A stretch of DNA of 64,000 bases, from contig SCSV01000081.1 in NCBI GenBank assembly GCA_004297555.1, positions 826 through 64,825 on the forward strand, in the 5' to 3' direction. Within the stretch, counting starts at the first letter, position 1, and each line of letters begins with the position of its first letter. The stretch is from Salinibacterium sp. Lineage in GTDB: Bacteria > Actinomycetota > Actinomycetes > Actinomycetales > Microbacteriaceae. The translations under genes and the position numbers were made by a program. Positions 4 to 55,736 of this stretch are shown one piece after another. The notes under the pieces were generated by a model that saw nothing but the letters and a program-made list of their open reading frames with translations, did not search any database and had not been told where the DNA came from.

Positions 4-687
4 CTACCACCACACGGACACCCTGTCACGCATGTGACGATCGAGTTCATTGTCGAAATAGGAGCTCTCGCTTCCGATAACGCCAGCGTCAGTGACCATA
101 CTGGCCGGGGGCAGGTCTGTCCCGGGAGGCAAAGGCATCGCGCCGCTCGAGAAGGCGCGGAGCGTCTTGATTGTCTCGGCGTATTGCGCCTTCAGCGCGC
201 CAGGCAGGTCCAGGTCCCGCCGGACGCGAAAGGCCACCTTGAGGCAGACCGCGGCGGCCTGACGACACACCGCTAGTGCCTGGGTGTTCGTAATGTCAAG
301 TTGGTACCGTCCGAGGTAGCCGTAGACCTCTGCTGTCACCGCATCGATCATCTCGTCCAAGACGAAAGTGTCAATCGCCGCATCGTCCGGAATGCCATAC
401 ACGGTGTTCCCGCTGGCGGGTGGAGTCAGAAAAATGAGTTGGTCAACGCCGAGCGCCCCGGTGCCACGCGACAGCACGACATTCGGTGACTCGACTAGTA
501 CAACATTCACGTAGACGGTGACGGCCAATGCCCCAAGAAACGGCGTATCGAAAACGGTAGTCGAATTGTCCCCAGTCCCAATCGGCTTCTGGATCATGTC
601 GCACGTGATGCGCGCCGCAGAGTCAGACGAGGCAATCGTCATCACGTCGTCACGGTCCATAAGCTTGATGAACGGTGAAGCCGTCAT
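4..687 (-). CDS. Head-tail adaptor, Mu gp36/DUF1320-like, with inserted beta domain
   Basis: C-terminal IDAVTAEVYGYLGRYQL...YAETIKTLRAFSSGAMPL fits the gp36/DUF1320 pattern; downstream of the capsid genes. Confidence 0.65.
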   Translation of the reverse strand: MTASPFIKLMDRDDVMTIASSDSAARITCDMIQKPIGTGDNSTTVFDTPFLGALAVTVYVNVVLVESPNVVLSRGTGALGVDQLIFLTPPASGNTVYGIPDDAAIDTFVLDEMIDAVTAEVYGYLGRYQLDITNTQALAVCRQAAAVCLKVAFRVRRDLDLPGALKAQYAETIKTLRAFSSGAMPLPPGTDLPPASMVTDAGVIGSESSYFDNELDRHMRDRVSVWW

Positions 688-1178
688 CTGACACTCCTCG
701 GAAGCTCCACGTGCGGCCTATCAATCCTGTCCGGTGGCCAATCACCGCCCCAGATCAAACCCTCGGCCCTGGCCACCGGTCCGATGCGATCGAACTTCTC
801 GATGTCTTCCCACGGAACGAATGGCTTGCCCGTCCCAGGGGCCAAAACATAGGGCGCGAGATCGATCGCCCTCGACAGCAAAACACCGTTGTAGTCAACG
901 CCCTGATGGTTGGATTTGCTATGCACACCGTCGCAGTTGGTAACTGTGCCCTTGTTGGCCTCCGCGGTGATCGGCGCAAAATGAACGGCCAGCCTCAGTG
1001 CGTTGACCTCATCGAGAGACATCCTTCCTTGAGCCCAGAGCGCCCACTGCTCCTGCTGGGTACGCATCACCGGCTGACAAATCGAGAGACCTTCGCCCTT
1101 GTACTGTAATGGGTACATCAGCAGCATGGCCTCGACCTTCTGCACCAGGATGGGGTGGGCGTACCTCTGCCAGTTCAT
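684..1178 (-). CDS. Endolysin, M15-family (L-Ala-D-Glu-type) peptidase
   Basis: RTQQEQWALWAQGR, VTNCDG..SNH, AIDLAP, WGGDW, DRPHVEL motifs. Confidence 0.85.
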   Translation of the reverse strand: MNWQRYAHPILVQKVEAMLLMYPLQYKGEGLSICQPVMRTQQEQWALWAQGRMSLDEVNALRLAVHFAPITAEANKGTVTNCDGVHSKSNHQGVDYNGVLLSRAIDLAPYVLAPGTGKPFVPWEDIEKFDRIGPVARAEGLIWGGDWPPDRIDRPHVELPRSVR

Positions 1179-1181
1179 GCC

Positions 1182-1355
1182 TCAGCCTCCGATTGGGCTG
1201 TGCCTGCGAACGTCGGGACCACCGGTGTCGATCGCCGTCTGTTGCCAGAATGCCTTGTCGGCGTCCGAGAGGGCGTTCCAGGTATCTTCGTTTCCGCCGC
1301 CGGAAGTCAGGAAGAGCTGCTTGCCCTCGGCGTACGGATCTGCTGTTGCTGTCAC
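1182..1355 (-). CDS. Small acidic hypothetical protein (57 aa)
   Basis: GTG start overlaps upstream stop; GGAGG RBS. Confidence 0.5.
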   Translation of the reverse strand: MTATADPYAEGKQLFLTSGGGNEDTWNALSDADKAFWQQTAIDTGGPDVRRHSPIGG

Positions 1356-1939
1356 GGGTGACCTCCTAGAAGTTTGATGATGTGCGGCAGGCCGTCCTGT
1401 ACAATCTTTACGGCCAGGCCTGCCGTCAGTGTGATCGCCAGCCATCTGATGGCTTTGGCGCTTTTTGAGAAGTTGGCCCATTCGATGGCCAGAGTATCCA
1501 CCTTGGTGACGAGGCCATCGCGCCCAGCGTGCGCATCGGTTCCGAGTAGGATGGATCTGTTCGCCGACTCCATTGCCGATCGCTCGTTCATCTTCTTCAC
1601 CGTATCCGCGAATCTGTCTTCCAGCCTATCGAACCTAAGACTCAGATTTCCGACGACCGTGGCGTTCTCGAGCTTGTGACTCTCTCGCCAGCTCTTGAGG
1701 TTTTCGATATCCGCCACCTGGCGCGCGAACTCGCGATCGCGCCAGGTTTCCCAGTTGGCCCAGCCGTGAAATGCCTTGGAGAGTCTTTCGTCGAGCATCT
1801 TGTTGATCTCGTCGAGCTCTCTCCTGACGAGGGCGAAGGATTCCTCTGACCTCTCATCGACTCTGCGAATCTCTGCACCGAGCCGAATGAATTCGGCGTC
1901 GAGCCCTGCTGTTGCATTCTGGTGGTTATGCTCTGCCAC
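1352..1939 (-). CDS. Coiled-coil protein with C-terminal TM helix (holin/XhlA-like)
   Basis: Helical heptad body; C-terminal AIRWLAITLTAGLAVKIV; GAGGTG RBS before GTG at 1939; close to the endolysin. Confidence 0.55.
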   Translation of the reverse strand: MAEHNHQNATAGLDAEFIRLGAEIRRVDERSEESFALVRRELDEINKMLDERLSKAFHGWANWETWRDREFARQVADIENLKSWRESHKLENATVVGNLSLRFDRLEDRFADTVKKMNERSAMESANRSILLGTDAHAGRDGLVTKVDTLAIEWANFSKSAKAIRWLAITLTAGLAVKIVQDGLPHIIKLLGGHP

Positions 1940-2068
1940 ATCGTCACCTCGCTGCCGTCTTACTGCTGGCCGCCATGGTGGCGTAGCCGGTCCTCTCGAC
2001 ATGGTTCACCCCCCTCATCAGGTAATGACACCTAGCGAGCAGGACGTGAGCGGGTCGAGTCGAAAAAT

Positions 2069-2221
2069 TCACAGACGACGGTCCTGAAGGATTTTGATGA
2101 CGACGACGATGAGAACCACGACCAGCAGAATGTGGATCAGCCCTCCGGCAGAAAATCCGCCCAGGAGTCCCATTGCCCACATCAGGACTAGTAGAACAAT
2201 CAGTAGCGTCAATGGGTCCAT
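2069..2221 (-). CDS. lmo0937/DUF5670-like small membrane protein (50 aa)
   Basis: LLIVLLVLMWAMGLLGGFSAGGLIHILLVVVLIVVVIKILQDRR matches the family pattern as recalled. Confidence 0.75.
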   Translation of the reverse strand: MDPLTLLIVLLVLMWAMGLLGGFSAGGLIHILLVVVLIVVVIKILQDRRL

Positions 2222-2222
2222 A

Positions 2223-2651
2223 TCAACTCCCTTCAGGGGCCGAGGCGCCTGCCGCGGCAGCTTCATCCGTTGCGGGTGGATCCTCGAATCCAAGCCAGGA
2301 TCGAATTGCGGTGACGGCTGTTTTGCGCGTCCATGCCGCGCCACCCGCGAGAATACCGATAGCGTAGGTCCTCCAGTCGATCTCCCCCGAATACACTGAG
2401 CTCACCGTATAGTCGATAAAGAAGAGGGCGAGTCCGCAGTAGGCGTTGATCATCCCCTTGGATTTATACCAAGGCACTACCCTTACGGTTACGTGTGCCG
2501 CGGATGCCGGAAGCGGCCCGCTTACGGGCGCTAGGGGAGCTGCGACTATGGCGCCCGGGGCGCTGGTGGTGCTGGCCATCAGCGTGCCAGCGGGGGCGGC
2601 GGCTCCAGGGGCGGGCGTTGGTGTCTCAGTAGCCATGTCCGATCCCATCAC
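2223..2651 (-). CDS. Putative holin (2 TM) with Pro/Ala-rich N-terminus
   Basis: PWYKSKG followed by two hydrophobic segments; lies in the lysis cluster. Confidence 0.55.
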   Translation of the reverse strand: MMGSDMATETPTPAPGAAAPAGTLMASTTSAPGAIVAAPLAPVSGPLPASAAHVTVRVVPWYKSKGMINAYCGLALFFIDYTVSSVYSGEIDWRTYAIGILAGGAAWTRKTAVTAIRSWLGFEDPPATDEAAAAGASAPEGS

Positions 2652-2941
2652 GGCTTCTTGGCCGTCTCCAGTTCGTCCATGATCTGGACGCCAAGCATGA
2701 ACAGCTTCTGCGCCGGAGAGTCGGGACCCATGGTGGCCGCGGCCTTGAGCAGGTCAGTTTTCAATGTGCTGGAGCCGGCCGGTATCGAGGCCCCGTTCAC
2801 GGCGCCAGCGATCTCCTCGACGATCTGGACGACGCGTGGCCCCTCGTTGAGGATCAGCCGCATCGCAGGATTCTTCAGCACGTTCATCACGAAGGTGAGG
2901 ATGGAAGGGCTAAGTACCGGGGGCGGGGCGGTTTCTGGCAT
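2648..2941 (-). CDS. Hypothetical protein
   Basis: Coupled ORF, AAGGAG RBS. Confidence 0.55.
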   Translation of the reverse strand: MPETAPPPVLSPSILTFVMNVLKNPAMRLILNEGPRVVQIVEEIAGAVNGASIPAGSSTLKTDLLKAAATMGPDSPAQKLFMLGVQIMDELETAKKP

Positions 2942-3120
2942 TACGACTCCTTCTTCGGCGGATGGGTTTCGAAATATGGCTCGGCGAGAGGCTTTTCCTC
3001 GGCCGCAGCCTTGATGGCCGCCTTGGTGTCGGCAGCTTTGTCTTCCTTGTTGGGGACAAGCCCCAGAATCTCCACCGCCGCCTGCAGACCGAAGACGACG
3101 GCGTCTACAACGCCAGCCAT
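2941..3120 (-). CDS. Small hypothetical protein (59 aa, MAGVVDAVVFGLQAAVEILG...)
   Basis: Read by hand (below the ORF-track cutoff); TGATG coupling upstream, TAATG downstream. Confidence 0.55.
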   Translation of the reverse strand: MAGVVDAVVFGLQAAVEILGLVPNKEDKAADTKAAIKAAAEEKPLAEPYFETHPPKKES

Positions 3121-3434
3121 CAGCGTAGCCCCTTCGCGACGCGTTCGAACTCTAGAATTTTGGCCTTCGCATCCGCGAGCTGCAGTGGAAATTTTCCACC
3201 GATACCGAGCGCTATACCCGCGGCCTTGTTGGCCGGATCCGCGGCGTCGCCTGCCTTCTTCGTGGCGCGGCAGGCGTCGATCATCTCTTTTGTATACATG
3301 CGCTCGACCCCACAGCTTGCGTTGTACCTGGCCTGATAGAAGTCGTAAGTGTTGCGAAGAGTACGAATCTGATTCGCGGGCGACATGCAGCCGCCCGCGA
3401 ACAGAACAAGGACGAGAGGTCCGGTTCGACGCAT
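3120..3434 (-). CDS. Lipoprotein (spanin-like candidate)
   Basis: MRRTGPLVLVLFAGG-C: basic n-region, hydrophobic h-region, lipobox-like Cys. Confidence 0.6.
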   Translation of the reverse strand: MRRTGPLVLVLFAGGCMSPANQIRTLRNTYDFYQARYNASCGVERMYTKEMIDACRATKKAGDAADPANKAAGIALGIGGKFPLQLADAKAKILEFERVAKGLR

Positions 3435-3439
3435 CCCTC

Positions 3440-3745
3440 TTAGCTGTGCGGCGAGGACGGCGTCAGCGTGGCATCAGCGTTGTAGCCGATCTGAGTCACG
3501 GTCAGCGTGATCTGGTCGACCCCGGCGCCAGGCTGCGCGTCGAACGAGGCCGTCACGTCGCACGGCCCGCCGGCGCTGAGCTGCTTCGCGACCTTGGATC
3601 GCGGATCGGCCGGGACCGTGTCCTCGAGGGCAACGATCGTGGCATTTCCCGTCGTCCAGGTGATCTCGCCGTCCGCCGCGGCTGAGCCGGTGATGGTGTA
3701 GGTGATTTTCTTGCCGACTGGGCAGTAGGTTGTTCCGACGTTCAT
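3440..3745 (-). CDS. Single Ig-like (Big_2-like) domain protein
   Basis: Beta-rich; ITWTTGNATIVAL...GPCDVTASF pattern; AAGGA RBS. Confidence 0.55.
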   Translation of the reverse strand: MNVGTTYCPVGKKITYTITGSAAADGEITWTTGNATIVALEDTVPADPRSKVAKQLSAGGPCDVTASFDAQPGAGVDQITLTVTQIGYNADATLTPSSPHS

Positions 3746-3769: not shown

Positions 3770-5386
3770 TCAGTCGGCATTAATGATCAGGAATGTGACT
3801 TGAGTGTTTGAGGTACAAGCTGCTGTCATCGTAATTGTGAATGATCCGGCCGATGGAACTACGGCCTTCACGGCGCATGTTGCATCGACGAAGCTCGCGA
3901 CCGCGAAGACGTGAGTATTGGTGGAGTTGCATACGCTATCGGTTACGACGACACTCGACGCCGAAGCCGCTACGTTCACAAAACCGGAGGCCTTATTGAT
4001 CGTCACGGCACCTACAGTCGCCGTATTAGTATAGTCAAGATATAGCTTCGAAAAGTTGGTATTTGTCCCAGTCCCTAGCGACGTAGCGCCAGCTCCGTTG
4101 GGGATCATCGCACCGTTACCGAAGTAGAATTTTAGCGCGCCTGCGAAACAGTAGCCCCACAAGTTCGCGCCAGCATCAACCCACCCAGAGGTCTGGGCCG
4201 TGCTCATTGAGATAGCTGGTGTACATCCATTGACATCACCCGGGCCGATGACCACTTGACCTGGGCCGCCCGCAGTGCCAGTGCCAACGCCTGCGCCGGG
4301 AGTCAGATTGATGTTTCCGCCCCTTGCGTTTCCAGACGTTTTCTGTGCAGCGGCGCCGCCTGTAATTGTAACGGCCCCGCCGGCCGCTGCCCCAGCATTG
4401 GTAGACCCGGCGGTTGCTGCGGAGGCGGTAAGGCTCGCATTGGCACCTGCCACGGTAGAGGCGGCCTGCGTTGGAGCCGTAGCCGTAGTGCTGATGTCAG
4501 TTCCTGCGGTACTGGTGCGCGCGTTGATCACCGGACTCGTCAACGTCTTGTTGGTCAACGTCTGCGTGTCGGTGTCCCCGACGATGGCGCCGCTCGGCGC
4601 TGTGACGGCCGTGAACGGCGACGTGCCGTTGCCCTTGAGAATCCCGGTTAGCGTCGCGGCGCCGCTTCCTCCCTGGGCGACCGTCACTGCGGCGTTATCG
4701 GTCAGGATCGTCGAGGAGGCGTTGGGAAGGGTGAACGTCTTCTTCGATGTCGCCGGACCGCTGAACGCTGTGAAGCCATTCTCGGTGCCGCCATTCGCCC
4801 CGGGGAGTATCCCTGTTACCTTCGTCGTGAGATCGATCGTCGCGTTGGTGATGTCGGCGTTGACGATCGCTCCGAACGATGGATTACCGGAGGCGTTTCC
4901 GTGCAGGACAGTCGTGGTTGTTCCCTGGTTCGCAAACTGAGCTCCAGCCAGAGTCAGGCCCGTACAGGTCAGGTTTCCGTTCGCGGCGATCGAAGTGGCG
5001 AATAGATTCGACCCGCACGCGGTCGGGGTTGCCGCAAGGGCAGTGGCGGTAGCTGCGTTTCCAGTCGTATTCTGATTCAAAGTTGGAACATCAGCCCCAA
5101 CAAGTGATCTGCATGCCGGCACTGCCGCGCCTCCGGACGTTGCTGAGGCGAGGACCTTGTTGGCCGTGCATGTCGCAAAGTCAAGGTTGAGCCTTGGCGT
5201 CGTCGACGGCGTGTCCCACGTAATCACGAAGGCCGATCCGATCGTAGCGCTTCCGACGTCGGTCACCGTCCCGCTGCCACCGCCGCCGGCCGCACAGTCA
5301 GAGCCGTCCATTTTGCACGGCCCCACCAGGTCCTGCGCGTAGGCAGGCCAGGCAAGCAACATGAGGATCGCGATAAGGCGCTTCAT
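3770..5386 (-). CDS. Fibre-like Gly/Thr/Ala-rich protein with N-terminal Sec signal peptide (538 aa)
   Basis: Coupled ATGA start MKRLIAILMLLAWPAYA|QD; fibre-type motifs NQNTTGNAATAT, TGILPGANGGT, DTQTLTNKTLTSP, TATVGAVTINKASG. Confidence 0.7.
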   Translation of the reverse strand: MKRLIAILMLLAWPAYAQDLVGPCKMDGSDCAAGGGGSGTVTDVGSATIGSAFVITWDTPSTTPRLNLDFATCTANKVLASATSGGAAVPACRSLVGADVPTLNQNTTGNAATATALAATPTACGSNLFATSIAANGNLTCTGLTLAGAQFANQGTTTTVLHGNASGNPSFGAIVNADITNATIDLTTKVTGILPGANGGTENGFTAFSGPATSKKTFTLPNASSTILTDNAAVTVAQGGSGAATLTGILKGNGTSPFTAVTAPSGAIVGDTDTQTLTNKTLTSPVINARTSTAGTDISTTATAPTQAASTVAGANASLTASAATAGSTNAGAAAGGAVTITGGAAAQKTSGNARGGNINLTPGAGVGTGTAGGPGQVVIGPGDVNGCTPAISMSTAQTSGWVDAGANLWGYCFAGALKFYFGNGAMIPNGAGATSLGTGTNTNFSKLYLDYTNTATVGAVTINKASGFVNVAASASSVVVTDSVCNSTNTHVFAVASFVDATCAVKAVVPSAGSFTITMTAACTSNTQVTFLIINAD

Positions 5387-5742
5387 TTGGGAAAATACTC
5401 TAGGTAGAGATTGTCGACGGTACCCGCACTGCGAGTCCATGTGACGCTCGTCAGTGTGCTTGGGTTGAACCAGTAGTATTCAGTGCAGGCGGTCGACGTC
5501 GACAGACTGACTGATTTGGTGGTCACCAGTTTGCCGGTCACCGACCCCTGGTTGAAGGAAACGACGCCCGAGAAACCAGTCGTGCAGAGCTGCCAGTTGA
5601 ACTTGTTCGGGCCGCTGACGTTGAACTCGCCGGTTGTGCCGGACGCACCGCTTGGTGTGGCCGGGGTGATTGTCGTGACGCCAGCGAGGAGAGGAAGCGC
5701 CAGCAGGAGGCAAGCCAGCGGGGGGAGAAGCCTTTTCGTCAT
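5383..5742 (-). CDS. Secreted small beta-sandwich protein
   Basis: MTKRLLPPLACLLLALPLLA| signal peptide; beta-strand-rich mature part; GGAGG RBS. Confidence 0.65.
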   Translation of the reverse strand: MTKRLLPPLACLLLALPLLAGVTTITPATPSGASGTTGEFNVSGPNKFNWQLCTTGFSGVVSFNQGSVTGKLVTTKSVSLSTSTACTEYYWFNPSTLTSVTWTRSAGTVDNLYLEYFPK

Positions 5743-5743
5743 G

Positions 5744-6313
5744 TTACCTCCGGAAGCTCTCGAGATACGTGGCTGCAGCGCGAAGGCGCTCAGGGTTGTC
5801 TTTCATGTGGCCGAGGGCTGTATTACAGGAAACGCACAAAAGGGCGCGGATGGCACCGGTGGCGTGGTCGTGATCGACCGAGAGCAACCTTGGAGTGCCG
5901 CCACGACCGATGGCCGTCTCTGGGTTAGAGCAAATTGCGCAGAGGTCGTTCTGTCGCGAGCGCATAGCCTCGTAGTCGGCGCGTGAGATACCGTAGGCCC
6001 ACTCGCGTTGCCTCGCGCAGGCCTTGCCTGGGTCGGCGGCATGGCGAATTCTGGCCAGCTCATTAAACCTATCTATGTTTTTGGCTCGATACTCCGAGGA
6101 CCAATGCGGATTTCGTTTTCTCCAAGCGTTGGTTCTTTTGCGAGCCATCACCCTCTGCTCTTCTGTCAGCACTGGTTGCTTGCGCATGCGGTCACGGGCC
6201 CGGGCGGCCTCTGGATCGCGCGCACGACGAGCCTTGGCCCACTGGGCAGCCAGCCGACGTTTCGCATCGGCTGGCTGCAGGCTCTTCGGGAAGATTAGGT
6301 TGAGCTTTACCAC
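5744..6313 (-). CDS. Endonuclease VII-type His-Me finger (homing-like) nuclease
   Basis: CAIC...LSVDHDHATGAIRALLCVSCNTALGHMKDNPERL. Confidence 0.85.
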   Translation of the reverse strand: MVKLNLIFPKSLQPADAKRRLAAQWAKARRARDPEAARARDRMRKQPVLTEEQRVMARKRTNAWRKRNPHWSSEYRAKNIDRFNELARIRHAADPGKACARQREWAYGISRADYEAMRSRQNDLCAICSNPETAIGRGGTPRLLSVDHDHATGAIRALLCVSCNTALGHMKDNPERLRAAATYLESFRR

Positions 6314-6331
6314 GTAAGTGCTTTATTTTGC

Positions 6332-7312
6332 TTAGCTTGTCTCGACGGAGAGCACGTGCTTAAGGACATAAATCCCATCATTGCTAAGCACATGCAAATG
6401 ATCCCAGATGTCGACGCTCACCCACGTCCGGAGGACGTCCTGCTCCGCATCGCGGAACACCTTGGTTCCGTACGAGGGCGAGAAGTTGTTCCACCTCATC
6501 TGCGCCATCGCCGTGAAGCTCCGCTTGTTGCCGGCGAAGCCAGGATCGACGTAGACGAGATAGACGTCGTCGCTCGACCATACGCGCGAGAACGCCGCGG
6601 TCTGACCCGCAGCGGCCGTGTCGTGCATTAGGCCTGGGGTGATGATCGGGATACCGACGATGTTGTCCGGGAGGATCCCGCCGAGCTGCATGCGCGAGTC
6701 GGTGTACTTCAGCTTCTCACGTAGGAAGGCGCTGAGCACGTCGGCCACGAGGGGCGGGATGACGATGCGCCAGTTCCCGCTCTTCATGTCCTTGAGGCTG
6801 TTGATCTCCGCCTGGCGTGCTGCCGCCGTGATGTCGGCGATCGGGTCACCAGCGAAGCTGGCCGCGTCCCACTTCGTTGTGGGACTGGCGTTGTGGTTGG
6901 AGACCGACTGCACGGCGTCGAGTGCCGTCTTGACGGCGATCTCCATCTCCATGCGGAGATCGTCGATCTTGTCCTGCTGCTCGGTGATCTCGTTCCCGAG
7001 CAGGTCCCCGTGCGGCTGAGCCCTGACCTCGTCGAGGACGTAGCCACGGAGCGCCCGACGCTCGCAGCGTCCGGGGTCGAACGTCGGGGCCACCGAATCC
7101 TTGACGTTCGGTTTGCCTCCGGGCCCGACCTTGGTGCTCACCTTCTGAAGACGAGCCACCGGTGATGTGAATTTCGGCACCGAGTAGTCCTGCGTGTCCG
7201 TCGGGGTGGGCACGGCGAGGAGCTCGTTGATTGCCGAACCGCCCTGACCCTGTTCGATTGCGAACTGGGTCAGGAGCAGGTTATATGGATACAGATCCGC
7301 GGTGCTTTGCAT
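6332..7312 (-). CDS. Major capsid protein
   Basis: 326 aa after protease and decoration genes; KWDAASFAGDPIADI...IVIPPLVADVL...VWSSDDVYLVY resembles lambda gpE/Mu-type HK97-fold MCPs. Confidence 0.8.
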   Translation of the reverse strand: MQSTADLYPYNLLLTQFAIEQGQGGSAINELLAVPTPTDTQDYSVPKFTSPVARLQKVSTKVGPGGKPNVKDSVAPTFDPGRCERRALRGYVLDEVRAQPHGDLLGNEITEQQDKIDDLRMEMEIAVKTALDAVQSVSNHNASPTTKWDAASFAGDPIADITAAARQAEINSLKDMKSGNWRIVIPPLVADVLSAFLREKLKYTDSRMQLGGILPDNIVGIPIITPGLMHDTAAAGQTAAFSRVWSSDDVYLVYVDPGFAGNKRSFTAMAQMRWNNFSPSYGTKVFRDAEQDVLRTWVSVDIWDHLHVLSNDGIYVLKHVLSVETS

Positions 7313-7343: not shown

Positions 7344-8024
7344 TCAGTTGGCGCTGCGGGCAACTTCGTAGAAGTTGGTGCCGTCGAAGACCAGCGTGAT
7401 CGTGTCGTCTGCGGTCGTCGACATGTTGCCGGCCAGCTTCAGGTTGTTGCCGTCGGTGAAGGTCAAGATGCCGTCGAAGATGATCGTGATCATCGTCCCG
7501 GCCGCGATGCCGGTTGAGGTGATCGACGTGATGCTGGTGGTCCCAGTCACGTGGAAAACGTGACCGGTCGGAACGATCGCGCTGGCGCTGGCCACCGCCG
7601 TGCCGAACGATGCCGCCACGTTCGAGCCGATCGGGGGCCTGCGGCCCACGATGATCGAGACGTAGTCGCCGCTCGAGCCGCCCTTGAGCGCCTGTCCGCC
7701 GACGGGGCTGAACCCATCCCACGTAACGCCGACGCCACTCGCACCCGACTGCACGTACGCATCGTCCGCGACGGTGCCGCCGAGCTTGATGAGAGCGATG
7801 CCGTCCATCCGGATCGTCTGGTCCGAGTTGATGGCAGCGTTGCCCTCGAGAATTCCGTGAATCGCTCCGCCGGCGCTCGAGAGAACGAAGAAGTTCCGAT
7901 CCGTGTCGAGGGTGACGAAGAGGCCGCCCCCCTGGAGCGGTGCGGTGGGATTCCCCGTGACGGCCGCGGTCGCGCGGGCCGAGATCGAGGTGACTCCCGC
8001 CGTCTTGTCGTTGAGCCTTGCCAT
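7344..8024 (-). CDS. Capsid decoration/cement protein (DUF2190-like) with C-terminal extension
   Basis: IRMDGIALIKLGGTVADDAYVQSGASGVGV...GQALKGGSSGDYVSIIV; located between protease and MCP. Confidence 0.65.
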   Translation of the reverse strand: MARLNDKTAGVTSISARATAAVTGNPTAPLQGGGLFVTLDTDRNFFVLSSAGGAIHGILEGNAAINSDQTIRMDGIALIKLGGTVADDAYVQSGASGVGVTWDGFSPVGGQALKGGSSGDYVSIIVGRRPPIGSNVAASFGTAVASASAIVPTGHVFHVTGTTSITSITSTGIAAGTMITIIFDGILTFTDGNNLKLAGNMSTTADDTITLVFDGTNFYEVARSAN

Positions 8025-8052: not shown

Positions 8053-8685
8053 TTACTGGGCTCGGCAGAGCTCGTTGACGGCCTGCTGGAAGGTCAGCTT
8101 CCGCGCCGGGTTCGCGGCCATGAAGGCCTTCGCGGAGTTGGCGATCTGCGCGGCCTCGTCGGGATCACGCGGGTTGAGGCCAGCGAGCGCTCCGGGTCGG
8201 AGTTCGATGCTCTCGTCGAAGGCTTCCTTCTCGCGTCCGCCCTCGAAGACCTTCGCGGTCGGGATCGTCACGGCGGCATCTGCCAGGAAGGCTTTGAACT
8301 CTTCGGGGGCCTTCGCGGCGAGCTTCTCAGCAGCCTCACGCTGCTTCGAGGTGACCTTCCGGGCAGTCATGGCCTCCGCAACCATCGCCTTCGTGCGGCG
8401 CTCGGTCTCGATCGCGTCGAGCCTCTTCTGGAGCTCGGCGCTGACGATCTTGTCGGTGTTCGTCGCGTGCTCCTCGAGATTTCGCGACAGCTTCGCGATC
8501 TGGTCGTTGAGCGCCTTGACGTCGGCCATGCTGGCCACGGGCGATGGCTCACCCTGCGTGCCGGCACCTGCGGTCGACGCGGACGCCCCCGCCTTCAGAT
8601 GCGTCTGCAGGGCGGTCTCGAACTCTTCCTCGGTCGCACCGCTCGCGAGCCCGAGGAGCTTCAGGGTCTCGGGCGAGACTTTCAT
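8053..8685 (-). CDS. Nested in-frame scaffolding protein (internal start)
   Basis: AAGGAG 5-6 nt before internal ATG (MKVSPETLKLLGL); helical, charged C-terminal region. Confidence 0.55.
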   Translation of the reverse strand: MKVSPETLKLLGLASGATEEEFETALQTHLKAGASASTAGAGTQGEPSPVASMADVKALNDQIAKLSRNLEEHATNTDKIVSAELQKRLDAIETERRTKAMVAEAMTARKVTSKQREAAEKLAAKAPEEFKAFLADAAVTIPTAKVFEGGREKEAFDESIELRPGALAGLNPRDPDEAAQIANSAKAFMAANPARKLTFQQAVNELCRAQ

Positions 8686-9699
8686 GTCGTGCTCCTTCGC
8701 TGATTTCGCCGGTGACGGCGAGGCCTGTGATTCGTGCCCGCGGGCGCGGGCGGTTGAGGTCGACCCGTACTTTTTCTTCATTCCAGGCATGTCGTCGTCA
8801 TCGTCTTCGCAAGGCGTGACGTCGATGCTCAGGTTTGCGGCGGGGATCGTCGGCTCCTCGGCCTCCATCTCGCCCAGGAGCGCCGCGAGAGTCGTCACGC
8901 CATCGACGAAACCCGCACGAACCGCATCGGCCCCGATGTGGATTCGGGCGTCGGCCATGGCCTGCGCCTTGGCCATCGGAATTCCGCGACCGCGGGCGAT
9001 GTCCGCCGTAAAGAGAGCGGCGATGGCGTCGATCTGGCCCTGCACCTCTGCGCGCTGCTCTTCGGTGAGAGGGCCCTCGCGACCCGTCCCCTTGAGAGGG
9101 GTGCTCACGAAGACCTCGTTCTCGATGCCGACGTTCTTCTCGAGACGGCTGTAGTCGACGTACTCACAGACCACGCCGACAAACCCGACCGATGAAGTCG
9201 CATTCGTATAGACCTTGGTGCCTTGCGATCCGATCCAGTAGGCTGCCGAGGCCATCATGTCGCTCGCGAAGACATTCACAGGCTTCACAGAGCGCGCGTC
9301 GAAGATGGCTGCCGCGAGCTCGGAAACGCCCGGGATGCAGCCCCCGGGCGAATCGACCACGAACAGAACACTCTTGACGTTGCTGTCGGCGATAGCGTTC
9401 TGAAGCGCCTCCTGGGTCTGCTCGCAGGCGGCGACACCGCCGAAAAGCCAGCCCCAGAACGAGGTCCGTTTGCAGACCATTCCCTCGAATCGGATGATCG
9501 CGACACCCTTCGGGGTCGTCTCATACCCAACGTCCTCGGGGTCCTCGGGAGGAACACGGCGCTGGAATGCCCCCGCTGGCATGCCAGCGCCCCCGGATGC
9601 CGCGGCGCGCAGGCGTGCCCTTGCCCCCGGCTCCATCAGCATGATCGCGTCCGGCCGCAGGTCCGGCCAGAACTCGAGGTTTTCGGGCGCCTTTTTCAT
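8053..9699 (-). CDS. Prohead protease (S49/SppA family) fused to scaffold
   Basis: VDSPGGCIPG, MMASAAYWIGSQ, SSVGFVGV; ATGA-coupled start at 9699. Confidence 0.88.
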   Translation of the reverse strand: MKKAPENLEFWPDLRPDAIMLMEPGARARLRAAASGGAGMPAGAFQRRVPPEDPEDVGYETTPKGVAIIRFEGMVCKRTSFWGWLFGGVAACEQTQEALQNAIADSNVKSVLFVVDSPGGCIPGVSELAAAIFDARSVKPVNVFASDMMASAAYWIGSQGTKVYTNATSSVGFVGVVCEYVDYSRLEKNVGIENEVFVSTPLKGTGREGPLTEEQRAEVQGQIDAIAALFTADIARGRGIPMAKAQAMADARIHIGADAVRAGFVDGVTTLAALLGEMEAEEPTIPAANLSIDVTPCEDDDDDMPGMKKKYGSTSTARARGHESQASPSPAKSAKEHDMKVSPETLKLLGLASGATEEEFETALQTHLKAGASASTAGAGTQGEPSPVASMADVKALNDQIAKLSRNLEEHATNTDKIVSAELQKRLDAIETERRTKAMVAEAMTARKVTSKQREAAEKLAAKAPEEFKAFLADAAVTIPTAKVFEGGREKEAFDESIELRPGALAGLNPRDPDEAAQIANSAKAFMAANPARKLTFQQAVNELCRAQ

Positions 9700-11132
9700 T
9701 GGAATACCTCTCGCGGAAGGTCGGCTCCCGCTGGGGGCGGCTGCTTCTGAACTGGGGCTCCAGGAACCGGCGCGGCCCCCGGCGGCGGGCCGGCGTCGAT
9801 GCACGGCTCGTTCTTCTCCGGGACGCTCAGGCCGGTGATCTTGTAGAAGTCGGCCTTGGTGACCGGCGCAACGCTGCGCAGGTTCAAGAAGGCCTGCGAG
9901 AGCGCCTGCAGGTCCTGCCGCTCGTAGATCGACATCTCGAACTCAGGCGTGAACTTGTCGGCCCATTCAGGCCCGAAGCGACGAGCTACAGCATGACGAG
10001 CCCACTGCTCGCGTAGCGCGCCGGCGAACTCTTGCATGAAGGCCTCGGCGGTGCGCAGGACGTTGACGTCGCCCACGCCGGCCGAGCTCTGGCTACCGGT
10101 GTCTGACTGGACCTCGCTGGTCTGCCCGTGACCGTGGATCAGCTTCGAGATTTCCCTGCCGGTACTCTCGAAGAGCTTCTGCGCTGGGCTCTCGGCACCC
10201 GCCTTCGTGCTCGACGTATCGAGCACGTTCAGCTTCGTCCCCTCGAGAAAGACTCCGGCGCCATCTGGGCCGAGGCGCTGCATACCCTTCTGCAGGTTAC
10301 GACGGCTTTCCTCGCCGGCGGCTCCATCCTCGCGCGGAACGGTGGCCCACAGAATTGGGATCGTGAACTTCTCGGCGAGACGAGCCCACCAACGCACCGC
10401 GGAATCGCGCAGAATCCATAGCGGTAGAAGCGCCGCCGTGATCCCGCGGAGCGAGGGGTCCGGGATGTCGGCATCGAGCTCGACAAGCATCACGCTGCTA
10501 CCGAGACTCTCAACCGTCGGGGCCTCAACGATCGGCTGAGTCACCTTGTAGCGCAGGACCATCTGGCCGCCGCGATTCCAGTCCCACCCAAAACGCTGGC
10601 CTGGTATCGGGGTTAGGCTCTCGAGACGCTCCTCATCGCCTGCCGGGCGCGTCGGATCGACCGAAGAGATGACTTCGATGCCGCCCATGCCGTGCAGTAG
10701 AACCGCGCGCGCCCACTTGTAGAGGACCGAGCGCAGCTTCACGCTGGGCGCCGCGAGCTGGTCCTCGACCCATGACCGCACCTGCGCAGCGGCATCCGTG
10801 TCGGGCCCCTTGATGACACCCCACCCGCGGTACTGCTTCGGCTCTTGGATTGAGATCCGAGCCGTCGAGACAAGACCAGCCGCCTTTTTGACGTCGGCCC
10901 GAATCTGAGAGTCCCGCATCGACTCGTTCGCGAGCGCGAACCAGCGCGAGGGATCCCCGAACTGGACCATTGCCCTGGCCTGCTGCAGGACCTTGGCGGT
11001 GGGCCGGTGGAAAACGCTAAAGACGAACTGATCCGCCTGACCCGTCATCCAGACGCTCGTCACGGGACGACGCAGGAAAGAGATGACGCTCGAGGCGGCT
11101 TTGGCGAGACCGGAAAATTGCATCACATGCAC
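9696..11132 (-). CDS. Portal protein, Mu gp29/DUF935-like
   Basis: Follows TerL; WARLAEKFTIP...REISKLIHGHGQTS...FGPEWADKFTPEF resemble DUF935 motifs. Confidence 0.8.
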   Translation of the reverse strand: MHVMQFSGLAKAASSVISFLRRPVTSVWMTGQADQFVFSVFHRPTAKVLQQARAMVQFGDPSRWFALANESMRDSQIRADVKKAAGLVSTARISIQEPKQYRGWGVIKGPDTDAAAQVRSWVEDQLAAPSVKLRSVLYKWARAVLLHGMGGIEVISSVDPTRPAGDEERLESLTPIPGQRFGWDWNRGGQMVLRYKVTQPIVEAPTVESLGSSVMLVELDADIPDPSLRGITAALLPLWILRDSAVRWWARLAEKFTIPILWATVPREDGAAGEESRRNLQKGMQRLGPDGAGVFLEGTKLNVLDTSSTKAGAESPAQKLFESTGREISKLIHGHGQTSEVQSDTGSQSSAGVGDVNVLRTAEAFMQEFAGALREQWARHAVARRFGPEWADKFTPEFEMSIYERQDLQALSQAFLNLRSVAPVTKADFYKITGLSVPEKNEPCIDAGPPPGAAPVPGAPVQKQPPPAGADLPREVFQ

Positions 11133-12634
11133 GCTTCTTCGTATGACGGGTTGGCGTATCCATCGTCGTACGGCGATTCGTTGTCGTAGGCAAACGAGTC
11201 CGGGGTGCTGTAATCGACCCCGAAGACGCGGAACGATTTGTAGCTCGGAGAGGCGTCGACATCAAGATACATGGCCGCGTAGCGCATCGCGTCCATGCCG
11301 TGGTTGTTGAAGTCGACTGGAGCTTCTTTTTTAGACCTGCCGTACGGGTCCTTGCTCCACGAGTACGACTCAAACTCCTGGACGGTGCTGATCGGCTTGC
11401 GCTTCCGATCCAGCTCTTCGTCCCGCTCGTGGAGTGCGTCATCTACGAAGAAGATTCGAGGCCTACCGTCGGCCTGGATCCGCAAGCGCTCCTGAATCCT
11501 CTGAATGCCCGGCGAGATGTCCTTGATTGCTTTGCGCGACACGAAGCCGGAGTCTTCGAGAGTTTTTCGGTCCTCCGCATCGTGGTCAACGACCGTCGCC
11601 TCGAGACCGGCCCCGCCCGGGAGCTGGCGCATGATCTCTTTCATGACCTGGGCGTGGTCGTGAACCGTGACTCCGGTCCGGTAAATCTCGTGGATCAGGT
11701 ACATCCGCCCGTCGTTGTCGACAGCCCAAAGCTGCCAGACGAAAGCGTTCGTAAACCCGAAGTCGATAGAGGCGATGTAGCGCCGGCACTCGGGTACCTC
11801 ATGCCGCTTGATGATGTGCACCTTCCGAATGAACCCCTCATAGACGATCCCCTCGGCCTTGACCCAGCGGCCGAAGAAGTACCGTTCCTTGCGAACGCCC
11901 GTGAGGGCCTGGAGCGGCGCCATGCGCTGTTCGTACTTCGCCGTGGGCTTCCCGTCGTCATCGAAAAGCTCAGGGTTGTCCTCATGCCTCGACTCGAGGA
12001 GCATCAGCGGGCCAGCAGGGGACTGCTCGGTGGCGGGTCGTCCGCGGCTGAGAAGCCAATGGAGCGGGTGCGTCGGGTTGGCGTCGCCCCAGATCATGGG
12101 CCACTCCGTGACAGCGCCACGACCCGTCGTGCGCGACTGCAGAGTCTCCCAGTCCTCTTCCTCGAGCTCCTCGGCCTGGCAGACGTAAACGCCGTCCGGC
12201 TCGCCGGAGAGGAAACGTGACGGGCGATCGAGACCTGCAATCCAGACCTTCGCGCCGTTGTCATAGACGTAGCAGTATGGGTTGGTACCGCCGATCGGCC
12301 TGACGCCACTCCCACGCTGGATGATGGTGTCCCAGCGCTTCATGATCGTCGTCTTGAAGTCGGCCTGGGTCTTCCGGACGATGCCGTATTGCCCGTTAGG
12401 GTGAGTCCTGGCCTCGTGATCGAGACGCTGCATGCACCCGTAGGATTTTCCGGTATCGGCCGGCCCCCAAAGTACGATCTCGTGGTGCTTCAGGGTCTGC
12501 ATCGCGAGGGCGGCTCCGCGGAACTTCGGAGCAGTGACGATTGCCCTCTCCGCTGCCTTCTTTTTGCGCAAAACCAGCATTGCCGCCGCGTACGGAGCGA
12601 TTTCGGCGATGGCTTTGTCTGGAGCGATGCTCAT
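11123..12634 (-). CDS. terL: Terminase large subunit
   Basis: Walker A GPADTGKS, QAEEL, DANPTHPLHW, nuclease SIDFGF and NHGMDAMRY. Confidence 0.93.
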   Translation of the reverse strand: MSIAPDKAIAEIAPYAAAMLVLRKKKAAERAIVTAPKFRGAALAMQTLKHHEIVLWGPADTGKSYGCMQRLDHEARTHPNGQYGIVRKTQADFKTTIMKRWDTIIQRGSGVRPIGGTNPYCYVYDNGAKVWIAGLDRPSRFLSGEPDGVYVCQAEELEEEDWETLQSRTTGRGAVTEWPMIWGDANPTHPLHWLLSRGRPATEQSPAGPLMLLESRHEDNPELFDDDGKPTAKYEQRMAPLQALTGVRKERYFFGRWVKAEGIVYEGFIRKVHIIKRHEVPECRRYIASIDFGFTNAFVWQLWAVDNDGRMYLIHEIYRTGVTVHDHAQVMKEIMRQLPGGAGLEATVVDHDAEDRKTLEDSGFVSRKAIKDISPGIQRIQERLRIQADGRPRIFFVDDALHERDEELDRKRKPISTVQEFESYSWSKDPYGRSKKEAPVDFNNHGMDAMRYAAMYLDVDASPSYKSFRVFGVDYSTPDSFAYDNESPYDDGYANPSYEEACM

Positions 12635-20322: not shown

Positions 20323-20631
20323 TCATCGGAAGAGCACTCCAGACGCTATGGCAGCTATGGCGCCCAACAGAAGCGTTGCGACGACGATATAGGCAATCAT
20401 CAAGGAAGTGGGGATTTCCGCCGGCGGAGGCGGGGGCGGCGGAGACAGTTGGCGCTTGATCTCATCGATACTCTCGGCCTCGATGAGCGTCGCATGGTCG
20501 TGGTGGTATACGACGAACTTCGTCGGACCATCGCCCTGCCTGATGAAATGAATTGTCGTAGGGTCGACCAAGAGGTTCGAGCCGAGGCGAACGAGGGTAC
20601 GGCCGCTCACGGCGTCACCTTGTGGTTCCAC
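20323..20631 (-). CDS. Small protein with C-terminal TM helix
   Basis: Beta domain, poly-Pro linker, hydrophobic C-terminus. Confidence 0.55.
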   Translation of the reverse strand: MEPQGDAVSGRTLVRLGSNLLVDPTTIHFIRQGDGPTKFVVYHHDHATLIEAESIDEIKRQLSPPPPPPPAEIPTSLMIAYIVVATLLLGAIAAIASGVLFR

Positions 20632-20939
20632 GCGGCCGCGCCGCCGTGTAGGATCGCTGCGGCCCAGTAGAGGGCTCTGGCCGTCTTCGGGGAGCTGGGG
20701 TTGATGAGCTCGGCCAGGAGGACCAAGCCCAGGGAGGCCCCGAGCTGGTAGGCCACCGGAGAGGACGTCGAGGCGGCTACGGGGTTTCCCTCCTTGAGTC
20801 CTGCAGAGAGGCCTCGAGAGGTCGTCAGGGTGTCGGCGGCCACGGAGAGGACGAAGGCGACGCGTGGGGCCGCCGAAGAGGAGCAGGCAGCGGACGAGAG
20901 AAGGGAGATGGAAAGGAGGAGGGGGAGGGCGCGTCTCAT
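20607..20939 (-). CDS. Membrane lipoprotein-like protein (DUF5658-like E-x-NP motif)
   Basis: MRRALPLLLSISLLSSAA-C; ADTLTT...KEGNPV. Confidence 0.55.
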   Translation of the reverse strand: MRRALPLLLSISLLSSAACSSSAAPRVAFVLSVAADTLTTSRGLSAGLKEGNPVAASTSSPVAYQLGASLGLVLLAELINPSSPKTARALYWAAAILHGGAAAWNHKVTP

Positions 20940-53750: not shown

Positions 53751-55736
53751 TTATATCAGCGTGGTGTCTAGAATAAACTGGAAACTTAGGCTTCCGGTGC
53801 AACCGTTTGCATCGGTAGCGGTGAAGGTCAAGGTCCTGGTCTCTGAGTTATCACAGAAATTACCAGTGATGGTTCCGTCGGAATTTAATGTCCATCCGGT
53901 AGGCATAGTACCAGTTTTTGAGTATGTGTATGGAGCGATGCCGCCGGTAGCCAGAAGATGATGCAGGGCAGCTAGGCAATCGATACTGTGGTTCGTGAAA
54001 CTGTACGGACTGTTCTGTGTCGATCCATCACTGTTTTTCTTCATGAGCAATGTGATCGTTGGGCAGATCGTTACATTGTAAGCCCTTGAGCCAGTGCAAC
54101 CGTACGCATCGGTAGCCGTAATCGTGAAGCTAAAAACCCCACTCGCAGTAGTTGACCCGCTCAGTGATCCCCCGCTAGAAAGCGACGTCCCCGTCGGCAA
54201 TGTTCCGGAGGTGACAGCGAATGTGTAGCTCGCAGTACCGCCGCTCGCGGTGATAGTGGTCGTGGCGAGTGCAGCTCCGACAGTCACGCCGCTGATCGAT
54301 GAGGGCGAGACCGTGATACCTGGACAACTCGCAACGATCTCGAATTCTTTCTCGCCAGGGCAACCGTTGTCGTCGGACACTATCACGTTGAATGTGTATG
54401 TTCCGGAGGTCGTTGGTGTCCCCGAGAGAACGCCGCTGCTCGAGTCGATCGAGAGTCCCGGCGGAACGCTCCCGCTTGTCGAGAAGGTATACGGCGAAGC
54501 GCCACCAGTCGCTCCGAAGGTTCGCGAGTAGGCGGTACCGAGTGTCGCAGCAACCGTCGAGCCGGTGATTGTGATGGCCGGGCAATCGGGCGCCAGGACA
54601 TACTCACGATGGCCCGTGCAACCATTTGCGTCTGTCGCCGTGATTGTGAATGTATGCGAGCCAGCACCAGTGGGCGTCCCCGAAATGATCCCCGTGTCCG
54701 GATCTAGCGATAGTCCGGACGGGAGCGTTCCGGTTGTGACCGCGAACGTGTAGGGCGCCACGCCGCCGGACGCAGAGACGGTATCAGAGTAGGAGGCATC
54801 GACAGAGGCAGCGGCGAGGCTGGTCGGCGAGACGGTGATTGTCGAGCATCCAATAGCAATCAGGTACTCGTTGTCCAGGTAGCACCCACGTGCGTCCATG
54901 GCCCTCAGGATGAACTCGAAAGACCCAGTCGCAGTTGGCGTTCCGGTGACCTGGGCAGTGTTTGGTGGCGTTGTCTCGAGTGTCATCCCTGTCGGCGGGC
55001 TTCCGGAGAGGATACTGAACGTAAATGGGAAAAGTCCGTGCGATGCTATGATTGTCGCGTCAGTGTAGTCCATCAGCAACGTGCCGTCCGGAAAACTGCC
55101 AGACCCTGGATTCAAGACGACGTGACAGCCTCCGCGACGCTCCTTGATCTCCACCCCGCGAACCGACACGAGCTCATTCGCGAAGTGATCGATAGAGAGC
55201 AGGTCCTGCGTAAACGCGGCATCAACGCACTGCAGGCCTCTGCCGCCGACCACTTTAATGATGGAGCCGTCACCTGGTGGCGTATCGAACGTCGCGGTGT
55301 CACGCCCGTCACGACCAGACCCGGACGTTGCGCCCCAGCCGGAGCCGATCTCCATCGGATCCCCAGAATCGATTTGCAGGACTAGCCCAGAACTGAATCT
55401 TACCGGCAAGTCGAAGAGCGTAGAGACGCCATCGCCCTTTTCGACAAGCAGCGGTACCGGCAGTAGCGGTTTCGTCTCGGCATCCCACCCATTGTAGTCG
55501 GTGAACGTAAACGCCCTGAAACGCCCGCGGCATTTTCGATAGAAGTCGTAGAGGTAGGCGATCTCGTCGAGTTCGCGAATTGGGTACATCAACCTGGCAA
55601 CGAACAGCGAGAAGTCGCGACCGACTCTCGACTGAGTGACGGAGTTCTGAGCGTAGGACAGCACAGTCAGATGCTCTCGCATCCCGACGTAGCCCTCCCC
55701 AGGCGCCCTCAGATCGCTGATGCTTGGAAAAATCAC
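53751..55736 (-). CDS. Distal tail (DUF2460-like) protein fused to five He_PIG-type Ig repeats
   Basis: LYDFYRKCRGRFRAFTFTD; five repeats with ASGG.APYTF...SGTPT...TITATDANGC. Confidence 0.8.
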   Translation of the reverse strand: MIFPSISDLRAPGEGYVGMREHLTVLSYAQNSVTQSRVGRDFSLFVARLMYPIRELDEIAYLYDFYRKCRGRFRAFTFTDYNGWDAETKPLLPVPLLVEKGDGVSTLFDLPVRFSSGLVLQIDSGDPMEIGSGWGATSGSGRDGRDTATFDTPPGDGSIIKVVGGRGLQCVDAAFTQDLLSIDHFANELVSVRGVEIKERRGGCHVVLNPGSGSFPDGTLLMDYTDATIIASHGLFPFTFSILSGSPPTGMTLETTPPNTAQVTGTPTATGSFEFILRAMDARGCYLDNEYLIAIGCSTITVSPTSLAAASVDASYSDTVSASGGVAPYTFAVTTGTLPSGLSLDPDTGIISGTPTGAGSHTFTITATDANGCTGHREYVLAPDCPAITITGSTVAATLGTAYSRTFGATGGASPYTFSTSGSVPPGLSIDSSSGVLSGTPTTSGTYTFNVIVSDDNGCPGEKEFEIVASCPGITVSPSSISGVTVGAALATTTITASGGTASYTFAVTSGTLPTGTSLSSGGSLSGSTTASGVFSFTITATDAYGCTGSRAYNVTICPTITLLMKKNSDGSTQNSPYSFTNHSIDCLAALHHLLATGGIAPYTYSKTGTMPTGWTLNSDGTITGNFCDNSETRTLTFTATDANGCTGSLSFQFILDTTLI

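Follow-up and report, generated by a model that had tools for sequence, protein, structure and literature searches.

A translationally coupled gene pair for a putatively exported two-part fibre in the capsid operon of a groundwater metagenome phage

Features of the gene pair and its position behind the capsid gene

The DNA stretch analyzed here (64,000 nucleotides of contig SCSV01000081.1, hereafter referred to as the window) covers nearly all of a phage contig of approximately 65.8 kb originating from a groundwater metagenome. Two overlapping genes located 3' of the capsid gene encode a small protein of 119 amino acids (aa) and a fibre-like protein of 538 aa, both starting with a predicted Sec signal peptide (SP). 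These genes, as well as all other genes of the head block listed below, are read from the minus strand. Two coupled genes with Sec signal peptides had been proposed for this locus in an initial annotation, and the corresponding open reading frames (ORFs) were found as placed (5742 to 5383 and 5386 to 3770), featuring an ATGA overlap and conserved signal peptides.

The small gene (5383–5742) is interpreted to encode an exported base or adaptor protein. Its predicted signal peptide comprises aa 1–20 (5683–5742; MTKRLLPPLACLLLALPLLA|G) and consists of an n-region with KR, a 15-residue h-region and alanine at position -1, followed by a domain of about 99 aa harbouring the invariant residues Cys53 and Cys86. 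The mature protein would begin with GVTT after MTKRLLPPLACLLLALPLLA, and the homologue P0122 features AYA|GVTT at the alignment position of this cleavage site. As read from the sequence, a ribosome-binding site (RBS; GGAGG, 5747–5751) is located 4 nt 5' of the ATG at 5742, and the ATGA start/stop overlap (5383–5386) couples the small gene to the fibre gene.

The putative exported fibre is encoded at 3770–5386; its 538 aa include the signal peptide and start with MKRLIAILMLLAWPAYA|QDLVGPCKMDGSDC. The signal peptide (MKRLIAILMLLAWPAYA|Q, 5336–5386) follows the pattern xKRL, h-region, AxA|Q, which is kept in the related loci L081, L123, L124, L126 and L128. Next to it, the mature N-terminus with a Cys loop (QDLVGPCKMDGSDC, 5294–5335) represents the proposed docking peptide for the small protein. 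The shaft with its repeat motifs (aa ~36–375; 4262–5281) was delimited from the coverage profile of database matches, and the C-terminal tip domain (aa ~432–538; 3773–4093) is common to P0118, P0070, P0095, P0024 and P0018 only. In total, the mature fibre contains 11 cysteines, at positions 24/31, 73/92, 124/141, 388/413, 486, 504 and 524.

Two alternative starts of the fibre gene were rejected. The longest ORF, starting at 5440 (556 aa), was replaced by the ATG at 5386 overlapping the stop codon of the small gene. The public gene call P0001 (513 aa) starts at M26 (codon 5309–5311), which is considered a wrong start because the 25 preceding residues are conserved at the protein level in five other lineages and M26 is replaced by isoleucine in one of them. 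Likewise, the L123 fibre was called from an internal methionine (MATFLG; region 9743–9893) located 3' of its signal peptide. Gene callers mis-start such fibres: both of these examined genes were called from a downstream methionine, hiding the signal peptides.

Signal peptides were judged by means of a crude heuristic, by eye and by conservation. The heuristic scan flagged only a few of the approximately 100 ORFs of the window. Both proteins and their homologues show an n-region of the type MxKR, an h-region and a (P)AxA|Q/G motif, i.e., the features of Sec export and signal peptidase I cleavage. The Tat motif (S/T-R-R-x-F-L-K) was not found, KR instead of RR being present in the fibres of the window, L123, L124 and L128 and in many small proteins. 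Since RR is not conserved, the Sec route appears more likely than Tat. Neither a lipobox with cysteine at +1 nor a beta-barrel, sortase or type IX secretion system (T9SS) signal was detected in the small protein or the fibre; a separate lipoprotein of 104 aa is encoded two genes downstream of the fibre gene.

The major capsid protein (MCP) is encoded at 6332–7312, and homologous MCP genes are located 5' of the small gene in L080, L090, L123 and L129. The initial annotation had placed the pair after the capsid gene. It does follow this gene, but an endonuclease VII gene (5744–6313; Pfam PF02945, E = 1.7e-24) lies between them in the window, whereas the pair is found directly 3' of the MCP gene in relatives. 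Because no gene is present at this position in L080, L123 and L129, the endonuclease VII gene has the appearance of an inserted mobile nuclease gene; its last codons harbour the RBS of the small gene. Furthermore, the pair is part of an uninterrupted late operon and follows the capsid gene even where the MCPs are only 21–46% identical, indicating deep synteny. No sigma-70-like promoter or intrinsic terminator was detected flanking the pair, the consensus applied being possibly not that of the host. With the same proviso, interpretation of the pair as a moron was rejected based on the lack of these flanking elements, the coupling to late neighbours and the conserved synteny.

Relatives of the small protein and the fibre

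An exhaustive profile search for the small-protein family yielded 39 cluster representatives, and a word-indexed search yielded 34 clusters. The family comprises approximately 65 sequences and occurs in at least eight phage lineages; Pfam, PHROGs and NCBIfam contain no family for the small protein, the fibre or the small-protein family as a whole. In an alignment of 20 small proteins, invariance is restricted to Cys53, Cys86 and two glycines, and all 20 sequences start with a signal peptide of the n/h/c type whose last residue is small. Among the 69 tabulated sequences, 55 possess the signal peptide and both cysteines, plus one that is misaligned. Related phage contigs (L080–L085) show the gene order portal, S49 protease, 196-aa protein, capsid protein, 116-aa protein and next gene. 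Their capsid protein is 27–29% identical to that of the window, and the 116-aa protein, with the N-terminus MKIRILSVLLALVLAVSAYA|GVTTI, is 54% identical to the small protein. The gene following it is connected by a GTGA overlap and encodes the N-terminus VRRLLALALLLAWPAAA|QVSMVGAPCKITDGSCA. A different domain layout was observed for the family member P0135 (194 aa), in which a Pro/Thr-rich linker of about 70 residues is inserted mid-domain.

Members lacking the signal peptide were found in three lineages (P0131/P0139, P0147 and P0160), and all of them also lack the Cys pair. In the two readable contexts examined, upstream of P0131 and P0147, no hidden in-frame signal peptide was found. In L129, the slot 3' of the capsid gene is occupied by an SP-less small protein without the Cys pair, coupled to an SP-less partner of 273 aa in which no cysteine was noticed; in L089, an SP-less fibre of 903 aa is encoded 3' of the capsid gene. 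Survey of the neighbourhoods substantiated that the pair follows the capsid gene in relatives with signal peptides, but versions devoid of them also exist at the same position.

In five relatives (P0140, P0142, P0143, P0144 and P0151), a signal peptide and the small domain are fused to the N-terminus of a fibre-like protein of 335–810 aa. In P0151, the small domain is followed by ...PSGCTAGSVALFLGSPVRLNCNSGLTYDAATNTL, the same sequence as behind the Cys loop of L081, where the fibre is a separate protein. The Cys loop (PC[KR][MI]xDGxxC) is absent from the fused forms, and the same GDSL-hydrolase gene and lysis cassette are located 3' of fused (L134, L135) and split forms (L123). Because these five relatives carry the small domain at the fibre N-terminus, the small protein is read as the detached N-terminal base domain of the fibre, each half having its own signal peptide after the split. 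The view that small protein and fibre form a functional pair is supported by the 4-nt gene overlaps that the examined lineages show (in L081, L123, L124 and L126 as GTGA or adjacent overlaps) and by the fused relatives. In L124, a 303-aa protein encoded directly upstream of the pair (9049–9966) combines a signal peptide with a divergent small domain (E = 1e-8 against the profile of the family) and a short tail resembling a fibre, and represents a second exported fibre in tandem.

Database searches with the fibre resulted in 792 matches at E ≤ 1e-3, directed to residues ~36–375 and including 86 places in IMG/VR viral contigs. Many of the matches whose contexts were examined sit in phage tail modules, including baseplate modules; the proposed fibre-like nature of the larger protein is thus corroborated. 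In six lineages (window, L081, L123, L124, L126 and L128), the fibre starts with (K/R)R, a hydrophobic stretch and AxA|Q, and its mature N-terminus contains PC(K/R)(M/I)xDGxxC; the remaining fibre sequence differs. For both proteins, the h-regions diverge across these lineages while signal peptides and AxA cleavage motifs stay conserved, in agreement with the initial expectation that homologues would retain the signal peptide, as assessed by heuristic and conservation. The distal part is swapped between lineages and consists of different shafts or a beta-helix lyase-like domain. In L128, for example, a pectate-lyase-like beta-helix is located behind the same signal peptide and Cys loop. These comparisons support the larger protein being a fibre with an exchangeable distal part. 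Moreover, all six of the L080–L085 contigs end within the fibre gene, which suggests strain-level diversity and would be expected for a fibre that is hypervariable among co-occurring strains.

SP-like N-termini were recognized in 66 of 114 full-length top shaft homologues (58%). The SP-bearing homologues contain a median of 11.9 cysteines per 1000 residues vs. 3.1 in SP-less ones (p = 9e-9), and the five proteins sharing the tip domain are all SP-bearing. At IMG/VR loci of shaft homologues, SP-bearing versions were found in 11 of 79 cases, the contexts being ordinary structural modules. SP fibres are encoded 3' of the capsid gene in L071, between connector and tail genes in L013, 3' of baseplate genes in L070 and L120 (E217-like myovirus) and within the tail-tip cluster of a Bacteroidetes-type siphovirus (L121), where five consecutive genes encode signal peptides. 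In the P22-like contig L119, the gp4-like adaptor gene is preceded by the genes of a 120-aa SP protein, of the SP fibre P0002, which is the best match to the window fibre, and of two further SP proteins. Since the small-protein family occurs in at least eight phage lineages and the same shaft is found on SP fibres of P22-like, E217-like and Bacteroidetes-type contigs, the system is not confined to this phage. Runs of four to five consecutive SP genes around SP fibres were observed in L121 (8443–13302), L119 (310–5077) and the myovirus-like L050 (6939–12215). Their occurrence in unrelated phages suggests multi-component exported assemblies.

Structure prediction by means of AlphaFold2 provided an all-beta model of low confidence for the small protein (predicted local distance difference test score, pLDDT, of 55; alignment of two sequences only) and a fibre monomer model likewise of low confidence (mean pLDDT 50.8). 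Foldseek comparison of the small-protein model with PDB returned only non-significant matches to jelly-roll or carbohydrate-binding-module-like folds (E ≥ 8e-3, template modelling score < 0.5), which were not used. A PDB sequence search found no relative of the small protein or the fibre.

Concerning the host, L128 corresponds to JBIOJM010000444.1, a contig of an Isosphaerales metagenome-assembled genome (MAG), encoding at 4587–6827 a small SP protein followed by a protein with signal peptide and PCKMDGTDC. It was the only match in a collection of 185,579 genomes with the short peptide patterns used. This contig is a weak lead that hosts include Planctomycetota, too weak for naming a host. Upstream of the L128 pair, three tandem paralogues of about 235 aa are encoded.

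Export, assembly and rival explanations

Export of both proteins is very probable in view of the conserved signal peptides, the co-variation of cysteines and signal peptide, and the presence of a separate signal peptide on each half after the split. Regarding their fate, the explanation favoured here is that the two genes encode one two-part appendage, which is Sec-exported late in infection together with synthesis of the capsid proteins and becomes attached to virions at lysis. A probability of roughly 0.45, i.e., slightly below even, is assigned to this explanation. Each polypeptide would be translocated unfolded via Sec and cleaved by signal peptidase I at LLA|G (small protein) and AYA|Q (fibre). 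Oxidative folding in the periplasm could then generate the disulfides Cys53–Cys86 in the small protein as well as the Cys24–Cys31 loop and further Cys pairs in the fibre, for which formation of a trimer is assumed. The Cys-loop peptide at the mature fibre N-terminus would dock on the small beta-domain protein, the putative detached base domain, and the exchangeable shaft and tip would bind a host surface structure. Finally, the fibre-base complex would meet finished particles as holin and endolysin breach the envelope, and would become attached as an accessory fibre in a head-proximal or side position. Sec export ahead of lysis is described for some late phage endolysins (PMC7143992).

A virion fate is favoured for several reasons. 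The pair belongs to the late operon with the capsid genes without a flanking promoter or terminator match, and the synteny with the head module persists over deep divergence. Furthermore, the SP-less pair of L129 and the SP-less fibre of L089 fill the same slot, and a conserved N-terminal module combined with swapped distal parts is a hallmark of virion receptor-binding proteins. SP fibres are also encoded where fibre genes ordinarily lie in phage contigs of the E217-like, P22-like and Bacteroidetes types, often beside other SP genes. Attachment to finished particles has a precedent insofar as fibreless T4 particles reportedly take up fibres in vitro, an observation ascribed to Edgar and Wood in 1966.

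As a broader and more tentative proposal, which may well prove wrong, several unrelated tailed-phage lineages could mature their receptor-binding fibres in the periplasm, involving Sec, signal peptide cleavage and Dsb-dependent disulfides, and load them when holin and endolysin open the cell, i.e., by lysis-coupled two-compartment assembly. Such assembly would be overlooked because the fibre family is nearly unmatched in the large collection of sequenced phages: tblastn searches against 50,697 phage records returned no match for the window fibre, capsid protein or small protein, and almost none for the SP fibres P0102, P0039 and P0002. There is a realistic chance that the pair reveals a periplasmic maturation route for phage fibres.

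A number of observations weigh against virion attachment of an exported fibre. We know of no tailed phage that exports a virion component, and literature searches on Sec-signal or exported fibres of tailed phages found nothing relevant; the presence of either protein in virions is what we infer from gene context and homologues. With a J-like protein already present at the tail tip, a minimal virion does not require the fibre. Moreover, signal peptides were called by heuristic and conservation instead of SignalP, confidence is low for both AlphaFold2 models (pLDDT 55 and 51), and a single contig binned in an Isosphaerales MAG provides the only lead to the host. A mixed case was identified in L132/L133 (1357–2585), where an SP-less small protein without the Cys pair accompanies a fibre with an SP-like N-terminus and a mutated Cys loop (KPARMDEAGW); the L132 pair is at odds with simple co-export. 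Finally, the only characterised SP-bearing phage-like fibres, the mosaic adhesive trimer (MAT) fibres of Bdellovibrio bacteriovorus (Caulton et al. 2024, PMC10769870), serve cell-surface display.

The last point leads to the main rival explanation, considered rather unlikely, namely an envelope or release-phase factor, in which the exported complex never joins virions. Located in the periplasm, on the envelope or on debris, or freed at lysis, it would bind or, in lyase versions, degrade the phage's own receptor and thereby shield progeny from adsorption to debris, block late superinfection or glue neighbouring host cells to the lysing cell. Real signal peptides, the phage's own J-like tip protein and the lyase-like distal domain in L128 are in line with such a role, and receptor masking by an exported phage protein is reportedly exemplified by T5 Llp. 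Furthermore, MAT fibres are displayed on the cell surface (PMC10769870), and the phage fibre proteins PblA/PblB act at the cell surface after holin/lysin release (PMC2920869). However, since no outer-membrane or surface signal (lipobox, beta-barrel, sortase, T9SS) was recognized, the proteins would stay periplasmic in a diderm host, on the wrong side of the outer membrane. Expression from the late capsid operon leaves little time for masking, and this late co-transcription with the capsid genes also argues against superinfection exclusion in its classical early form, a role that had been suggested for the pair. A free factor has no need of a conserved base or docking module, and the SP-less, Cys-less orthologues at the same position in L129 could not be displayed before lysis. 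Since SP-less orthologues exist, the function must suit a protein that is extracytoplasmic only at lysis; the SP-less, Cys-less pair thus argues against an intrinsically envelope-bound function.

The same SP-less small-protein relatives could be taken to mean that nothing is exported and that the N-terminal hydrophobic helices are structural, serving trimerisation or insertion in a pocket of the particle, so that the genes would encode an ordinary cytoplasmic fibre and its adaptor. This would correspond to the default expectation for tailed phages, whose assembly is regarded as entirely cytoplasmic, and to L132 with its hydrophobic N-terminus on one partner only. It is nevertheless judged improbable: all three SP regions are present, with conserved small residues at -3/-1, P or G before the site and Q or G at +1, the helix sequence is unconserved, whereas a structural helix is expected to keep its sequence, three lineages have lost the segment and the cysteines together, and SP-bearing homologues are Cys-rich. 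Tight coupling, co-export and the size of the small protein would also suit a periplasmic chaperone, i.e., a folding or trimerisation factor for the fibre, similar to tail-fibre assembly proteins, instead of a permanent base. Fibre chaperones are common in phages, but known ones act on the C-terminal end of the fibre, being encoded 3' of the fibre gene or constituting that end themselves, whereas the partner is located upstream in this case. In addition, the small domain is fused N-terminally in five proteins without any sign of a cleavage module, and the co-varying part of the fibre is the N-terminal Cys loop and not the tip, leaving the chaperone with little credence. The explanation given preference remains a two-part appendage attached to virions at lysis.

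Known systems and further genes of the window

The pair represents a phage-encoded, split variant of the SP-bearing fibre architecture known from the Bdellovibrio MAT. MAT fibres likewise possess a signal peptide, a conserved beta-rich base domain of ~100–130 aa, a shaft resembling phage tail fibres and a variable adhesive tip, one end being conserved for retention and the other diversified. In contrast to the pair, which is encoded in a phage late capsid operon between capsid and lysis genes, MATs are chromosomal in a predatory bacterium and surface-displayed. Furthermore, the base domain is a separate SP-bearing polypeptide in the window and is fused only in some relatives (P0140, P0142, P0143, P0144 and P0151), and an S74 domain is lacking; the likeness of the base domains is one of architecture.

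T7 gp17, K1-5/G7C-type adaptors and phi29 head fibre gp8.5 are classical examples of fibre and tailspike systems. Like the pair, these combine a conserved N-terminal attachment module with horizontally exchanged distal parts for receptor binding; a small partner gene directly precedes the fibre gene and, in the case of phi29 gp8.5, the fibre gene lies by the capsid gene. They differ by the lack of signal peptides and by cytoplasmic assembly, and the window pair has no detectable sequence similarity to solved structures. Late phage proteins exported by Sec, such as SP and signal-arrest-release (SAR) endolysins (PMC7143992) or T5 Llp and Cor-type lipoproteins, resemble the pair in host Sec use and envelope action, but are enzymes or small receptor-blocking lipoproteins and not fibre-like or modular. 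PblA and PblB, tail-fibre-type proteins of Streptococcus mitis phage SM1 (PMC2920869), are extracytoplasmic and bind surfaces independently of infection. Unlike the pair, they reach the surface via holin/lysin permeabilisation and choline binding, lack a Sec signal and belong to a Gram-positive host.

If the proposed export and attachment are true, a virion part or a virion-related host-binding device would be built in a second compartment. This would explain a large class of Cys-rich, SP-bearing 'tail fibre' genes in metagenomic phages and link phage fibres in evolution with the MAT fibres that predatory bacteria display on their surface. Infectivity of phages may then be limited by Sec and Dsb functions of the host, and pipelines for prediction of hosts or receptor-binding proteins that discard secreted proteins would need revision. 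If the pair acts on the envelope instead, it would constitute a novel type of release or exclusion factor, fibre-shaped and produced late.

According to the gene list of the window, the head block encodes the large terminase (11123–12634), a Mu-type portal (9696–11132) and an S49 protease/scaffold (8053–9804). Between the latter and the capsid gene, i.e., at the position of lambda gpD, a 226-aa protein is encoded (7344–8024). A scaffold PHROG is weakly matched at the N-terminal side of this protein and the C-terminus of a tail-fibre PHROG at its C-terminal side; homologues in relatives match Pfam K1-lyase_C. This protein may be a capsid decoration or spike and is a candidate docking site for the fibre. 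The small protein was also considered as a paralogue of the K1-lyase_C-like protein encoded 5' of the capsid gene, which was rejected at an hhalign probability of 0.1%.

Downstream of the fibre gene and in the same operon, a cassette (684–3745) encodes a 101-aa Ig-like protein, the 104-aa lipoprotein, small membrane proteins including a 50-aa lmo0937-family protein (2069–2221), a coiled-coil protein with C-terminal transmembrane segment and an M15 peptidase as endolysin (684–1178). The head-proximal block ends with a Mu gp36-like head-tail adaptor (4–687; Pfam PF07030, E = 1e-5), in the same order as in L123. Designation of the region as a head-neck operon was therefore abandoned, as the pair is followed by the lysis cassette and then the adaptor and not by classical neck genes. 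The placement of the lysis cassette (684–3120) between capsid gene and adaptor is unusual and was also observed in L086, L123 and L129, where an amidase or SLT replaces the M15 peptidase. The 104-aa protein (3120–3434) features the lipoprotein signal MRRTGPLVLVLFAGG|C plus additional cysteines and might act as a spanin component or belong to the exported system. Equivalent cassettes hold lipoprotein-like genes (128 aa in L123, 186 aa in L129), for which no similarity to the 104-aa protein was detected.

The tail module (62930 to 52386) includes a probable tape-measure protein of 1980 aa, two DUF2460 proteins and the J-like protein of 453 aa. At the tail tip, the gene of a 661-aa protein (53751–55736, minus strand) with a DUF2460 N-terminus and four He_PIG Ig-like domains adjoins that of the J-like protein; its product is probably a tail-tip adhesin. 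The earlier statement that the tail operon lacks a fibre gene consequently holds only in part: no second protein with the shaft of the pair's fibre was found in the window, but the J-like and the four-He_PIG proteins are present at the tail tip. In the early region, a 110-aa ORF (20607–20939, minus strand) encodes a lipoprotein-type N-terminus (MRRALPLLLSISLLSSAA|C) and represents a candidate exclusion or conversion lipoprotein.

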